From a virus, in the IMG/VR virus record IMGVR_UViG_3300027746_000644, positions 1-64,000 of that record: DNA of 64,000 bases; one strand, written 5' to 3'. Positions 19,811 through 42,116 of this stretch are shown piece by piece (position 1 is the first letter of the stretch; each line of letters opens with the position of its first letter). The notes under the pieces are model-generated. The model was not told where the DNA came from and searched no databases. It worked only from the letters and a program-made list of their open reading frames with translations. The position numbers were made by a program, and so were the translations under genes.

Positions 19811-21021
19811 TGACAACACAACAATTAACCGTACGAAACGATAGATTATGGGCAGATAGCAACCTAGATCTGTCTGCTGATCATGTTTATAAAATTGATA
19901 ACACACCTGTATTATCAGCTAACGAGCTTGGCCTTACTGTTACTAAAAGTAATCTGAGAGAAATTGGTACACTAAAAAGTTTAGAAGTATCGGGCACCAC
20001 AACTCTAGCAGAATTTGCACATTTTAACAGCTCAAACGGAAGACTAGGACTCGGCACTATAGATGCCAATGCCAGCATCAGTATTTTAGACAACGATGTT
20101 GAAATTGCTATCGGTAGTCCAGAGCCTGGCATTGCACATTTTGGAACTTATTCCACTAGCGATGTTGCTATTATCTCCGACAATATTCCACGCATACTTG
20201 TAAAAAGTAATGGTGAAGTAATTATCGGAAGTGAGGCTGGAAAAACTGGTGTGCTACGAGTGCATGGATCATTGCACGTTGATAATTTTGTTTCTGACAC
20301 AAGGGTTGAGCGTACTAGTTCGTTAGAATTTAAAGCCAACAGAGATGCTAGCATATATGGATTAGGTCTGTTATGGACTGCTGAACGCAACAATAAAGAA
20401 TTAATTATGCGGTCCGATCCTGATAGATTGTGGGCTAACACGTCTGTTGATTTAGAAGAACATAATGCATATTACATTAATGGAAGACCTGTACTAAGCG
20501 CGACCAATTTAGGAACAAGTGTTGTTAACAGTAATTTGATCACTGTGGGTCCATTGCAATCGTTAATAGTCACAGGCGACACTGTGTTACAAGGCGAGTT
20601 AGATGCCAGTTCAACCAATGCCAGCTTAAAATCACTTTTAATCAACAACGGCATTGACAGCGTTTCATTGAACGCCAGCGGCACCAACAGTAATAAAAAA
20701 TACAAGATTGCTATTAACGAAGAAGATGTATTCTACGCTAGTAATGACGAAATAATTATTGGTAATCCAAATTTTGGTCGTAGGTCAGTTAAGATATTTG
20801 GTCCAATTGCCACTACTTCAGATTTAACAGTTGATGGCGCCGTTACTTTAAACAACAAAAAGTTTACCAAAGGTGACCATGCACCAACCCAAGGACAATT
20901 CAACAAGGGCGACATTCAGTGGAATGAAAATCCAGTTGAAAGCGGTTATGTTGGTTGGGTATGCGTTGCATCTGGAACACCAGGACAGTGGTTACCATTT
21001 GGTGCTATTGCTCGCCAATAA
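19810..21021 (+). CDS. virion structural protein, tail-fibre-like
   Basis: Duplicated RLWA...DL...Y.I...PVLSA..LG..V..SNL..G.L.SL unit; C-terminal GDIQWN..P...GYVGWVCVASGTPGQWLPFG fibre/tailspike-type motif. Confidence 0.7.
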   Translation: MTTQQLTVRNDRLWADSNLDLSADHVYKIDNTPVLSANELGLTVTKSNLREIGTLKSLEVSGTTTLAEFAHFNSSNGRLGLGTIDANASISILDNDVEIAIGSPEPGIAHFGTYSTSDVAIISDNIPRILVKSNGEVIIGSEAGKTGVLRVHGSLHVDNFVSDTRVERTSSLEFKANRDASIYGLGLLWTAERNNKELIMRSDPDRLWANTSVDLEEHNAYYINGRPVLSATNLGTSVVNSNLITVGPLQSLIVTGDTVLQGELDASSTNASLKSLLINNGIDSVSLNASGTNSNKKYKIAINEEDVFYASNDEIIIGNPNFGRRSVKIFGPIATTSDLTVDGAVTLNNKKFTKGDHAPTQGQFNKGDIQWNENPVESGYVGWVCVASGTPGQWLPFGAIARQ

Positions 21022-21023
21022 CA

Positions 21024-21051
21024 TTGACTTTGTTGTATAAAAGTATATAAT
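21024..21051 (+). promoter_or_regulatory. sigma70 promoter for queD
   Basis: TTGACT (21024-21029), 16 bp, TATAAT (21046-21051). Confidence 0.7.
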
Positions 21052-21057
21052 TATATT

Positions 21058-21101
21058 ATGCGGACTTAGGCATTCATCCCGCAATATAAACTCTGCATGT
21101 C
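21058..21101 (+). ncRNA. candidate preQ1-I-like riboswitch aptamer (variant)
   Basis: P1 TGCGG/CCGCA, 15-nt loop ending in CATC, A-rich tail, possible GGCAT/ATGTC pseudoknot; lies in the queD 5' UTR. Confidence 0.55.
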
Positions 21102-21124
21102 ATTGCTTATTCAAGGAGAATACA

Positions 21125-21640
21125 ATGGCAAAATTTTACTCAACAAAAACTTACGGTAACGACAGAGGTTTATCCTGCTGTTTTAGACAATGGCGTGCCA
21201 GTCATAGCCACTGTTCAACACTACATGGTTACTCAATTGGTATCAAACTTATATTCGAGTGCGATACGTTAGATGACAAAAACTGGTGCATGGACTTTGG
21301 CGGACTCAAAGAATTCAAAGCATGGTCTGACAGCATGTTTGATCATACTCTAGTAGTTGCTGAAGACGATCCAATGTTGGATTTTTTCAAACACATGAAC
21401 GAGATAGTGGACATAGACAGCAAAGATCATCTGAGTAAACTTCCACATGAGCGCGGTGCCTTGTGTGATCTACGCATCGTACCCGGAGTAGGCTGTGAAA
21501 TGTTTGCCAAAATGGCATATGACAAAATGGCTGAACTATTGGCATCCGGCGATATGCGCTACCCAATTAATCCCACAGTAAGAGTTAAATCAGTTGAAGT
21601 ATTTGAACACGGTGCTAATTCGGCTACGTACGAAGGTTAA
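21125..21640 (+). CDS. queD: 6-carboxy-5,6,7,8-tetrahydropterin synthase / PTPS family
   Basis: HCSTLHGYS, MDFGGLK, FDHT, GCEMFA and VEVFE; AAGGAG RBS. Confidence 0.88.
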   Translation: MAKFYSTKTYGNDRGLSCCFRQWRASHSHCSTLHGYSIGIKLIFECDTLDDKNWCMDFGGLKEFKAWSDSMFDHTLVVAEDDPMLDFFKHMNEIVDIDSKDHLSKLPHERGALCDLRIVPGVGCEMFAKMAYDKMAELLASGDMRYPINPTVRVKSVEVFEHGANSATYEG

Positions 21641-21794
21641 GCATTATTGGAGACTTTGGGCAAAAGCCCTAGGTGAAAAATCAGGCAGTTCGGACGTGGA
21701 AGCGGACCGAATTGCTTGCATTAGAACGCTAGTTGTGTTAATATACATTATCACAAACTTTTTTATAATCGCAGGCGTCATAAGGCATTGGTAA
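21594..21794 (+). CDS. small membrane protein (start uncertain)
   Basis: WRLWAKALGEK...DRIACIRT followed by a TM helix; TAATG-coupled to uvsE. Confidence 0.6.
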   Translation: MKYLNTVLIRLRTKVKHYWRLWAKALGEKSGSSDVEADRIACIRTLVVLIYIITNFFIIAGVIRHW

Positions 21795-22822
21795 TGGGCA
21801 AAATAGGCTTCGCATGTAAATGGATCGATCATGCAGATCAAGTAAACGGCATCAAAAAAGATGACGATGCTAAACAATACAACACCGGTACAACTACCAT
21901 AAGTTGGTTAAATAGACAAAGCAAAGAAGTTGCAGAGCAAAAACTTTGGGACTTAATGGTTCAAAATTTATTAGCTACACAAAAACTAGTAGACCGTGTA
22001 GGAGGACTTAATGAAAATCTTAGGATGGTTCGCCTTAGTAGCGACATTCTTCCTGCTTATACCGAGCCTACTTGGAGTTATTTTTGGCGTCGGCCTGACG
22101 TTGTCAGCTATCTTGAGCGCAATTTTAGCCTTATTGGTCATAGTGCTCGTGCAAGCAATACCCGTCTTAGTATGCATCCTGGTCAGTTTGTTGTTCTTGC
22201 TAGTATTAATCCGGGTATTGTTCAACGAAGTATAGAAGAATTTGAATATCATGCTGACATGGCTCGTTATATGGGCTACGGCAGGAAATTCCAAGATTTT
22301 AAAATTAACGTACACATCAGTGGCCGACTAGGACCCGATGGCATTCGTGATGCTTATAAGAAATTAAGCAACGAAGCACGTAATTGTATTACAATTGAAA
22401 ACGAAGAAAACTCATGGGGGTTGGATGACTGTCTTACTATTAGCGATGTTGTGCCTATTGTTATGGATATTCACCACCATTGGATCAGGGAAGGTGTATA
22501 CATTACACCAGAAGATGATCGAGTACAACGTGTTATTGATAGCTGGCGTGGTGGTCGCCCTACTATGCATTACTCAGTTAGTAGAGAAGATTACCTAGTT
22601 GATCACGACACAACTATTATGCCTGACTATACAACACTGTTAGAGTTGGGACATAAAAAACAAAAACTAAGGGCACACAGTGACTTTTATTGGAATCAAA
22701 AAACAAACGAATGGGCAATAACTTTTCTAAAACAGTTCGACATGATGTGCGAAAGCAAGGGCAAAAACCTCGCCAGCATGGCAATGTACAATCAAGCCAA
22801 AAGCTATCTCGAGAACAACTAA
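21794..22822 (+). CDS. uvsE: UV-damage endonuclease
   Basis: IGFAC, RLSSD, RLSMHPGQF, IENEE, DIHHHW, HYS and AHSD motifs of the UvdE/UVDE family. Confidence 0.92.
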   Translation: MGKIGFACKWIDHADQVNGIKKDDDAKQYNTGTTTISWLNRQSKEVAEQKLWDLMVQNLLATQKLVDRVGGLNENLRMVRLSSDILPAYTEPTWSYFWRRPDVVSYLERNFSLIGHSARASNTRLSMHPGQFVVLASINPGIVQRSIEEFEYHADMARYMGYGRKFQDFKINVHISGRLGPDGIRDAYKKLSNEARNCITIENEENSWGLDDCLTISDVVPIVMDIHHHWIREGVYITPEDDRVQRVIDSWRGGRPTMHYSVSREDYLVDHDTTIMPDYTTLLELGHKKQKLRAHSDFYWNQKTNEWAITFLKQFDMMCESKGKNLASMAMYNQAKSYLENN

Positions 22823-22967: not shown

Positions 22968-23184
22968 ATTTTGTTACTTTAGTAGCACGTGGCTTTTTAG
23001 CTGCCGGCGCTTTCTTAACAGCTGGTGCTTTTTTGGCTGCTGGTTTTTTGGCTGGAACAATAGACTCCACTACTGCTTGTACAGCTTGCTCAGAAACCGC
23101 TGGGGTAACCTCAACTTTATATGGTGCTTCTGCTTGAACTTCAACAGGTTTTCCTGTAAAAAACTCTTTAATTTTTTTGAACAT
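22966..23184 (-). CDS. small protein with Lys/Ala/Pro (PAKK) histone-like tail
   Basis: GGAGG RBS on the minus strand; PAKKPAAKKAPAVKKAPAAKKPR. Confidence 0.75.
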   Translation of the reverse strand: MFKKIKEFFTGKPVEVQAEAPYKVEVTPAVSEQAVQAVVESIVPAKKPAAKKAPAVKKAPAAKKPRATKVTK

Positions 23185-23205
23185 TGTATGTTCCTCCTTG
23201 TGGAT

Positions 23206-23223
23206 TATTTATACTGATAAATA
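23206..23223. promoter_or_regulatory. back-to-back late promoters
   Basis: TATAAATA on the minus strand (23206-23213) and GATAAATA on the plus strand (23216-23223). Confidence 0.6.
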
Positions 23224-23228
23224 TCATT

Positions 23229-23789
23229 ATGTATAACTTTATTCGTCACATTACCTTAAATGAAGGTAATACACCTAAAACATTAACTCAAGCAGTCTTG
23301 CACTACAAGAAAGACGATTTAGAGCCGGCGATCTCAGAAGAAACCATTAATTACCATTATGGTAAGTTGTATAAAACCTATGTAGAGCGTTTTAACAATG
23401 GCGAAGGCGATGCTGACTTTAATGAAGCGGGTGCGTTTTTACACCATTTGTTGTTTACTCAATATCAATCGCCACAATCCTCAAATGCACCTACAAATAT
23501 TGCTGAAAATTTTATCAACAAATATTTTAAAAGTTTTGATAATTTTAAAGATGCTTTTCAAAAAGAAGCAATGAAGATACAGGGCAGTGGATGGGTGTAC
23601 TTGTCAACTGATGGCAGTATTAAAACTATCAAAAATCATCAAATAAAAATGGATATTGTATTCATAGTTGACTGGTGGGAACATGCATGGGCATTAGATT
23701 ATCAAAGTGACAAAAAAGGATATTTGGCCAATCAGTGGAAAATTATCAACTGGAACATTGTCAGTTCTAGAATTGGTCTAAGGTCTTAA
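23229..23789 (+). CDS. sod: Fe/Mn superoxide dismutase
   Basis: LEPAISEETINYHYGK, FLHH, GSGWVYL and DWWEHAW retain the four metal ligands; likely start is the ATG at 23229. Confidence 0.88.
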   Translation: MYNFIRHITLNEGNTPKTLTQAVLHYKKDDLEPAISEETINYHYGKLYKTYVERFNNGEGDADFNEAGAFLHHLLFTQYQSPQSSNAPTNIAENFINKYFKSFDNFKDAFQKEAMKIQGSGWVYLSTDGSIKTIKNHQIKMDIVFIVDWWEHAWALDYQSDKKGYLANQWKIINWNIVSSRIGLRS

Positions 23790-40302: not shown

Positions 40303-40863
40303 ATGATTATTGAATCTGTATTCCCAACATGTGTTCTCCAGGATTCTAATGTAGAGTTAGCTAACGCATTGTTGCCGTTGTGTAATAAGTATACATCATT
40401 AACTACAGACAATTTACTTAATATCGATAATTTTCCATCAACACTTGGGTCTAATGATCTCAATCCTGTTGTGATGTCAGAGCCGCTGGTACAGCAAACA
40501 TTGAATACAATAATAACGCATTATGCTGTTAAATTAGCAGATGCGGCGGGCATGAATTATTATCAAATAGATTTTAAACCATATGGGTTTTTTAGTTCTA
40601 TGAATAAAAATGCGTATCTAAGAAGACACATGCATCACCAATGTACATTTTCTGGAATCATTTACTTAGAAGTTGGTGACGATGTTCCGCCGTTGGTATT
40701 GTTTAATCCAAAATCAATATCAGTGTTTAATAACGAAATACAAAACACATATTTTGTTGAGCCAAAAGTTGGAAACATTGTGATATGGAACGCTTGGATG
40801 GAACACGAAGTTCCGCAAAAATTAAACAATAATCCTAGAAAATCATTTTCATTTAATATTTGA
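40303..40863 (+). CDS. putative 2OG-Fe(II) oxygenase (TIGR02466-like)
   Basis: HMH...SGIIYL...W.EHEV...RKSFSFN. Confidence 0.75.
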   Translation: MIIESVFPTCVLQDSNVELANALLPLCNKYTSLTTDNLLNIDNFPSTLGSNDLNPVVMSEPLVQQTLNTIITHYAVKLADAAGMNYYQIDFKPYGFFSSMNKNAYLRRHMHHQCTFSGIIYLEVGDDVPPLVLFNPKSISVFNNEIQNTYFVEPKVGNIVIWNAWMEHEVPQKLNNNPRKSFSFNI

Positions 40864-40875
40864 GCATCAATCTTA

Positions 40876-40926
40876 TTGACTATTAGGCAACGTTCATTGT
40901 ATAATTAGAAGAAGAGTTTCTAATTA
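40876..40926 (+). promoter_or_regulatory. sigma70 promoter overlapped by a 9-bp inverted repeat
   Basis: TTGACT (40876-40881), 18 bp, TATAAT (40900-40905); TAATTAGAA (40902-40910) pairs with TTCTAATTA (40918-40926). Confidence 0.6.
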
Positions 40927-40936
40927 AGGAGATACA

Positions 40937-41200
40937 ATGAACGCTAAAGACCAAGCAAAGAAAGATTACGAAGAAAATATTCAACTGATGCAAGACCTTA
41001 TGGGTCGTCTAGACGCTGTGGAGAAAAAAACTACCAGCGAGGTAGAGCATCCAGATCCAACCAAACACAAATATATTAGCTTTGTAAAAAGCTTCTTTAG
41101 AATTATTGCTGGCATTGCATTATGCTTTGGCGAATTTACTGTTGCTGGTCTGTTATTGATTGTTGCAGAAGCACTTGGAGTTTACGAGGAAATGGTTTAA
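40937..41200 (+). CDS. small membrane protein
   Basis: AAGGAG RBS; C-terminal hydrophobic hairpin ending AEALGVYEEMV. Confidence 0.75.
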   Translation: MNAKDQAKKDYEENIQLMQDLMGRLDAVEKKTTSEVEHPDPTKHKYISFVKSFFRIIAGIALCFGEFTVAGLLLIVAEALGVYEEMV

Positions 41201-41201
41201 A

Positions 41202-42116
41202 ATGAAAGAATTATGGGTAGAAAAATATCGGCCTAACACCATTGATGGTTATGTGTTTAGAGATAATCATCAAAAAGAACAAGTAGAATCTTGGATCAAA
41301 CAAAAGTCAATTCCGCATTTGCTGTTTAGTGGCAACGCTGGTATTGGCAAAACTACTCTAGCAAGGGTACTGTTTAACGAATTACAAATTAATGATCTAG
41401 ATGTTTTGGAAATCAATGCGTCACGCACAAACTCAGTTGAAGATGTTCGTGACAAGATTGTAAATTTTGTACAAATGATTCCGTTTGGTGATTTTAAAGT
41501 AGTACTATTAGACGAAGCAGACTATCTGTCACCTAACGCACAGGCGGCTTTGCGTGGAGTTATGGAAGAATACCATACTACTGCAAGATTTATCCTTACC
41601 TGTAACTATCCTAATCGTATTATTCCAGCATTGCATAGTCGTTGTCAAGGTTTTCACATTGAAAAAGTTGATATTGCTGAATTCACTGCTCGTGTGGCTA
41701 CCATTCTCATGGAAGAATCTGTAGAGTTTGATTTGGATACCTTAGACACGTTTGTCAAAGCTACCTATCCAGACCTACGCAAATGTATCAACACCACACA
41801 AATGAACAGTATGGATGGAAAATTACATACTCCAGAAAAAGCAGATAGTGGGCAAGCTGATTATAAGTTAGACATGGTTCGATTATTCAAAGCAGGAAAA
41901 ATCACAGAAGGTCGTAAACTTGTTTGTAGTCAAGCACGACCAGAAGAGATGGAAGAAATATTCCGCTGGCTTTATGACAACGTGGAAATTTTTGGTGACG
42001 AAGCAATCCAAGACAAAGCAATTCTTATTATTAAACAGGGATTAGTGGATCACACATTGATTATTGATCCAGAAATTAATCTTTCAGCAACGTTAATTAG
42101 ACTGAGCCACCTATGA
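41202..42116 (+). CDS. sliding-clamp loader AAA+ subunit (RFC small subunit / T4 gp44-like)
   Basis: LWVEKYRP, Walker [23 protein letters not shown] motif. Confidence 0.93.

Follow-up and report, generated by a model that had tools for sequence, protein, structure and literature searches.

Class I preQ1 riboswitches (preQ1-I; Rfam RF00522; types I to III) are H-type pseudoknots with a 5-6 bp P1, an A-rich L3 in the minor groove of P1, a conserved L2 cytidine that reads the ligand, a conserved L1 uridine and L3 adenine, and sequestration of the Shine-Dalgarno sequence (SD) (PMC10622847). Every preQ1 riboswitch known to us is an OFF switch. Other small pseudoknots, such as the guanidine-III (ykkC-III) riboswitch, act in the opposite direction: formation of the compact H-type knot frees the ribosome-binding region and activates translation. 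In phages, an H-type pseudoknot at the 5' end of the T4 gene 32 leader nucleates binding of the gene's own protein and governs translation of the downstream gene. Riboswitches are rare in phages; the glutamine (glnA RNA) riboswitches of aquatic T4-like phages (marine myophages) belong to a bacterial family already in Rfam (PMC9004378), and the phage riboswitches known are copies of bacterial families.

Here we analyzed the leader of a queD-like gene in an uncultured lake phage. It was originally predicted to be a variant of the preQ1-I riboswitch, with an A as the first loop base and a longer loop, by which the phage would feedback-control its own 7-deazaguanine or pterin pathway. The predicted structure was confirmed by comparative analysis, and well over a hundred related phages keep it through compensating base changes. 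The functional interpretation was only partly supported: the layout resembles preQ1-I, but the element does not reach the threshold of any Rfam family, and its wiring suggests that the knot turns translation on. Full-text literature searches found no description of this motif.

The leader of the queD-like gene

The window analyzed is a 64,000-nt stretch of a 94-kb IMG/VR virus record (hereafter G000), which CheckV rates 26% complete, suggesting a phage of several hundred kilobases. Related records of 228-355 kb carry the same locus, and one of them has terminal repeats and is rated 100% complete. The proposed promoter, P1, loop ending in C, A-rich tail, P2 and SD were all found in the sequence. 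The features, all on the plus strand, are as follows.

21024..21051 (+), sigma70-type promoter, TTGACT (21024-29), 16-nt spacer and TATAAT (21046-51); the predicted transcription start is about 21058, 1-2 nt before P1
21059..21063 (+), P1 5' strand, UGCGG, pairing with 21079-83
21064..21068 (+), L1, ACUUA, in which C65 and U66 belong to the N-C-U start
21069..21073 (+), P2 5' strand, GGCAU (pseudoknot), repeating the GGCA that follows the AUG of the gene
21074..21078 (+), L2, UCAUC, in which C78 takes the position of the specificity cytidine of preQ1-I
21079..21083 (+), P1 3' strand, CCGCA
21084..21096 (+), L3, AUAUAAACUCUGC; the tail begins with the A-rich AUAUAAAC
21097..21101 (+), P2 3' strand, AUGUC, complementary to GGCAU; four of its five bases (21098-101) are shared with the predicted start-hiding hairpin
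21098..21130 (+), predicted initiation-region hairpin, in which UGUCAUUG (21098-105) pairs with CAAUGGCA (21123-130) and UAUUC (21108-12) pairs with GAAUA (21118-22); the SD AAGGAG (21113-18) lies in and next to the 5-nt loop, and the AUG (21125-27) lies inside the stem
21125..21640 (+), the presumably regulated gene, encoding a 171-amino-acid QueD-like T-fold protein (PTPS family)

P1 encloses a 15-nt loop that ends in C78. The pattern TTGACT-N15-19-TATAAT occurs twice in the window against 0.13 expected. The only other perfect site, TTGACT-N18-TATAAT at 40876-40905, lies just downstream of the ORF 40303-40863 and about 255 nt upstream of the ORF 41160-42116. The window leader does not fold unusually well on its own (z = -1.5), and representatives of related leaders do not fold better than shuffled sequences (z from -0.2 to -1.5). 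The evidence for the structure is comparative.

The protein matched PF01242 (E 1.6e-15) and PHROG 2389 (QueD-like) but scored only 34.6 bits against the NCBIfam QueD equivalog cut-off of 89. A phmmer search against PDB returned nothing, whereas a profile of 25 relatives found the solved QueD structures 7v0f (E 9e-11) and E. coli QueD 3qn0/4ntm. In an alignment of this phage QueD family, H-C-x3-H-G-Y is invariant where E. coli QueD has C-x3-H-G-H. A non-histidine (C, A or V) sits where the first zinc histidine would lie, and Q22, FDH and DDP are invariant, suggesting that the metal site may differ from that of canonical QueD.

Conservation and covariation of the pseudoknot

A search with the protein found 341 relatives in viral contigs. 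Of the 80 loci retrieved, all but four (L042, L073, L078 and L080; L numbers denote loci of relatives) carry a recognizably homologous leader. We then scanned viral contigs independently of the gene, using a pattern of at least 14 bases taken from the invariant letters. This returned at least 80 loci; all of the 80 retrieved are true motifs, each in front of a QueD-like ORF, and these ORFs fall into six subfamilies below 62% identity. In total, 131 distinct leaders were collected by regular expression. Two of them were not full motifs (a false match in L172 and a degenerate copy in L161), and 129 were tallied.

Lack of covariation in homologous leaders would have spoken against the original prediction, but both helices covary strongly. 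P1 is paired in 99.2% of cells across 53 distinct homologous leaders, and 4 of 5 pairs show double changes. Seven P1 variants were seen: AGCGG/CCGCU, AGAGG/CCUCU, UGCGG/CCGCA, AGUGG/CCACU, ACCGG/CCGGU, AGUCG/CGACU and AUCGG/CCGAU. For P2, alignments by MAFFT and by a covariance model put the 4-bp variants out of register, and we therefore aligned 107 distinct 42-nt cores anchored on the invariant L2 and L3. In this register, each of the five core positions is paired in 81-92% of sequences, and all seven counted pairs show double changes. The covariation score is 0.609, against 0.223 +/- 0.016 for shuffles (0 of 500 reach it) and at most 0.18 for slid controls. An alignment-free test agreed: cognate loop-tail duplexes average -5.45 kcal/mol, against -4.02 +/- 0.15 kcal/mol when tails are swapped among sequences. 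P2 types include GGCAU:AUGCC, GACGC:GUGUC, GACUU:AAGUC, GGCG:CGCC, GGUG:CACC, GACAA:UUGUC and the 7-bp AUGGCAU:AUGUCAU. An alternative P2 register, pairing the invariant G95-C96 with the loop GC, was rejected because loops without GC (GACUU, ACGUCAU) still pair in the main register.

The unpaired positions are nearly fixed. L1 begins ACU, UCU or CCU in 129 of 129 leaders and continues for 2-7 more nucleotides, whole loops being 13-19 nt. L2 is UCAUC in 102, UCACC in 14 and UCAAC in 8 of 129 leaders; its last C is invariant in 107 of 107 aligned cores and in 129 of 129 leaders. L3 is always 13 nt, with the consensus N-U-A-N-A-N-A-Y-U-C-U-G-C, and A86, A88, A90, U92, C93, G95 and C96 are invariant in the 107 sequences. 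Such conservation is expected of a binding pocket.

The promoter type in front of the motif differs by subfamily (upstream of P1 in L001-L232, for example in L008, L013 and L053). Of 128 leaders, 36 have TTGAC-N16-19-TANNNT, and in 33 of these 36 the -10 box ends 6-9 nt before P1. About 50 have a T4-late-like TAAATA within 30 nt. The RNA element is kept regardless of promoter class. Metatranscriptome contigs cover the motif and the gene in relatives, and two contigs from a lake-water RNA library, at 99% identity or more, lie on flanking parts of the analyzed stretch. Contigs neither show a 5' end nor prove transcription, and the uncovered stretch 20822-21006 is not evidence.

Comparison with preQ1-I and other RNA families

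The phage motif shares with preQ1-I the H-type topology, a 5-bp P1 ending G-G/C-C (the consensus NGNGG/CCNCN is like genuine examples), a cytidine directly 5' of the P1 3' strand and an A-rich L3. Like preQ1-I, it lies at the 5' end of a queuosine/7-deazaguanine pathway gene and is predicted to act on translation. A role of C78 in recognition is inferred from its position alone.

However, RF00522 gave no hit in the window at the gathering threshold (39 bits) and none at E <= 10 on 20950-21250. Across five related phage genomes, only a 9.3-bit partial hit was obtained, at the motif of one relative (G004). Genuine aptamers in three bacterial genomes scored 45-57 bits with the same tool. L1, P2 and L3 are also longer than in class I: L1 is N-C-U plus 2-7 nt rather than short and U-rich, P2 is 4-7 bp, and L3 is 13 nt with an extra invariant YUCUGC rather than 6-8 nt, A-rich and running straight into P2. 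Genuine examples read AUAAAAAACUA. The aptamer-like core is about 43 nt rather than about 34. Moreover, the P2 3' strand does not contain the SD but lies 12 nt upstream of it, and is complementary to the start or SD region.

Conversely, a covariance model built only from the phage sequences (R1) placed its best hit in each of three 3-kb bacterial loci exactly on the genuine preQ1-I aptamer, with scores of 9.7, 6.5 and 6.3 bits covering model positions 9-41. These hits are weak, but they are unlikely to occur three times by chance. We therefore class the motif as working like, and possibly descended from, preQ1-I, but do not assign it to that family. An ordinary, diverged preQ1-I riboswitch that represses queD when preQ1 or preQ0 is plentiful could account for the topology, the invariant C, the weak model hits and the pathway of the gene. 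It is nevertheless unlikely, given the RF00522 scores, the loop differences and a P2 3' strand whose pairing in the knot should expose initiation rather than hide it.

The only Rfam model touching the region was freshwater-2 RNA (RF02980), with 14.8 bits (E 6.8) against a gathering score of 49.9. It shares UUAUGCGG..CCGC and the AAGGAGAAxACAAUG end, but its first hairpin falls on the promoter, and neither the pseudoknot nor L3 is modelled. We treat this hit as chance or as shared phage leader style. Guanidine-III has no sequence likeness to the motif and a different gene context, and no Rfam hit above threshold was obtained in the window. The gene 32 leader is not known to have a competing start-hiding helix, whereas a mutually exclusive helix and aptamer-like invariant loops are present here. 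In contrast to the glutamine riboswitches of marine myophages, the present motif has no bacterial counterpart apart from small contigs of metagenome-assembled genomes (MAGs) that look like phage DNA.

A predicted hairpin competes with the pseudoknot for the P2 3' strand

The nested minimum-free-energy fold of the window leader consists of P1 plus the initiation-region hairpin, in which the AUG is buried. Since four of the five P2 3' bases belong to this hairpin, the knot and the hairpin exclude each other. Nested folds of 6 of 8 representatives also gave P1 plus this hairpin. The same design recurs in relatives with compensating changes, CAUUG:CAAUG becoming CAUC:GAUG or CAUCUU:AAGAUG. Three-way covariation was observed: genes that start AUGACUU have the tail AAGUCAUC (AAGUC) and the loop GACUU, while genes that start AUGGCA have the tail UGYCAU and the loop GGCA. 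In the CCUAUG subfamily, the tail ..CC runs into CCUAUG, which pairs with CAUAGG of the SD; here the overlap between P2 and the anti-SD helix is only 2 nt (2-5 nt among the forms seen). Cognate anti-start/start duplexes average -8.69 kcal/mol, against -6.95 +/- 0.15 kcal/mol for swapped partners. Thus, the loop strand imitates the initiation region and competes with it for one shared strand. Some relatives start the queD-like gene with UUG (L013, L022) or GUG (L202) while keeping the leader architecture.

In our preferred model, the first ~45 nt of the mRNA form an H-type pseudoknot aptamer. Without the knot, the P2 3' strand would close a hairpin over the AUG or, in a sister subfamily, the SD, and block 30S binding. 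When the knot is stabilized, most likely by a small ligand held by the invariant L1, L2 and L3 nucleotides, the strand would be withdrawn and translation of the QueD-like enzyme would go up. The element would then be a translational ON riboswitch, the opposite of the feedback repression originally inferred. The analysis itself establishes the two helices with their conservation and covariation, the invariant unpaired bases and the competing helix. That a ligand exists and binds the RNA, that it stabilizes the knot and changes expression, and hence the ON direction, are inferences, resting on the assumption that the effector stabilizes the pseudoknot, as ligands do in every pseudoknot riboswitch known to us. 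The transcription start is likewise predicted. A ligand with a guanine-like face, for example a 7-deazapurine such as preQ0, preQ1 or CDG, or a pterin such as the QueD substrate dihydroneopterin triphosphate, is no more than a guess. We hold the existence of a conserved regulatory pseudoknot with a competing start-hiding helix to be very likely, and the ON riboswitch of a new class or variant to be moderately likely. ON control of a biosynthetic gene by a pathway product would be unusual, and P2 is weak (about -5 kcal/mol) beside the competing hairpin (-9 to -14 kcal/mol), so that the outcome may be kinetic.

The two competing structures exist without any need for a ligand, and P1 starts at the predicted 5' end, where hairpins protect mRNAs. 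The knot could therefore compete with the hairpin constitutively, or as a function of temperature or Mg2+, setting a fixed translation level or stabilizing the mRNA 5' end. We consider such a ligand-independent device unlikely, since eleven invariant unpaired positions across very diverse phages, and an L3 of exactly 13 nt in all 129 leaders, are more than a stability hairpin or a simple competitor needs.

If the model holds, a 7-deazapurine or pterin intermediate, possibly the QueD substrate made by the phage's own FolE or a host-derived queuosine precursor, may switch on translation of the phage QueD-like enzyme, and large aquatic phages would meter a modified-base pathway with their own metabolite sensor. 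This would be a new, phage-specific riboswitch class, built on or converged upon the preQ1-I fold but with inverted logic; the evidence does not exclude this reading, although it remains tentative. Binding of such a ligand would make the element a new aptamer class, or a specificity and logic variant of the smallest known natural aptamer. It would also provide a handle on how phages time the synthesis of modified bases, and a compact ON switch for synthetic biology. If the ligand is not a pathway metabolite, the element could reveal a new signal that phages read during infection. Its small size and very clear two-state design make it easy to test.

Gene context and distribution

The motif is abundant in aquatic phage metagenomes and is present as one copy per large phage genome. 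Every full-scoring copy but one precedes a QueD-like gene. The exception is a second copy in L063 (1339-1396; 51.9 bits), which lies before a 312-amino-acid radical-SAM ORF in the same cluster, 1.6 kb upstream of the queD copy. A degenerate copy in L161 (7-54; P1 ACCAG/CUGGU, UUCGC in place of UCUGC) precedes a methyltransferase-like ORF, and a remnant in L069 (2297-2322), made of promoter, P1 and loop without L3, precedes another gene.

These data bear on the possibility that the pseudoknot is a protein-binding operator, at which the QueD-like protein itself, or a phage or host RNA-binding protein, shifts the balance between knot and hairpin, as in the gene 32 leader. The element sits at the 5' end of one specific gene family in large phages that look T4-like (TAAATA promoters), RNA and gene travel together, and invariant loops could equally be protein contacts. 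However, the loop letters stay invariant while the proteins diverge to below 62% identity in six subfamilies, the element resembles a known metabolite aptamer, and the copy before the radical-SAM ORF argues against simple autoregulation. A protein effector thus remains possible but is unlikely.

Homologues in cultured phages (45-50% identity) include those of Pseudomonas phage Iggy, Acinetobacter phage HD01, Pseudanabaena phage Pan1 and Rhizobium RHEph phages. In Iggy, HD01 and Pan1, the gene abuts the preceding gene, among annotated queC, folE and dpdA or tRNA-ribosyltransferase genes, with no leader and no motif, and the RHEph hits overlap queD and queC annotations. This ties the protein family to 7-deazaguanine synthesis. 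The R1 model, run with filters off, found no motif at six cultured-phage queD loci (Marzo, BCSR5, Phosso, Pan1, Iggy and HD01), where queD is translationally coupled inside queC-queD-folE(-dpdA) operons. A blastn search of the locus and of two leader types against 50,697 cultured phage records gave only chance-level matches, and the motif was found in no cultured phage.

A pattern scan of 185,579 prokaryote species genomes gave 56 hits, close to the number expected by chance. The model confirmed only six, four small contigs of three Bacteroidota MAGs and two contigs of a marine 'Rickettsiales' MAG, all with the phage-type gene; the rest fall in coding DNA. The two 'Rickettsiales' contigs (L116/L135), which are probably phage DNA binned with a bacterial MAG, carry a divergent form of the motif (29 bits; P2 GACUU:AAGUC) behind a TTGACA promoter and before a QueD-like gene that starts MPFYSTKTYGHN.

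In the uncultured phages, queD is a free-standing gene with its own promoter and variable neighbors. Downstream, we found UvdE in 21 of 92, a KDO8P/DAHP-synthase family protein in 12, a QueE-like radical SAM protein in 5-7, a purine-type phosphoribosyltransferase in 3 and YhhQ/Vut_1 in 2. Upstream, we found HIT in 17 of 113, a cytidylyltransferase-like protein in 9 and a phosphoribosyltransferase in 5. FolE is encoded in G000 at 78984-79511, outside the window, and within 3-4 kb of queD in three relatives. QueC-like hits were weak, and no TGT/DpdA (PF01702) was found in any of five genomes, including the complete 355-kb relative. The queD-like gene travels with FolE, a purine-type phosphoribosyltransferase, a cytidylyl/adenylyltransferase-like protein, a HIT protein, QueE-like and weak QueC-like genes, and sugar-nucleotide enzymes (G002, a related genome, L273:3250-10951; L063; G000), which may represent a nucleotide-level 7-deazapurine route rather than DNA transglycosylation. 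In the window, queD is followed by a UvdE-type UV endonuclease (21788-22822), the commonest downstream neighbor in relatives, and an Fe/Mn superoxide dismutase (23184-23789).
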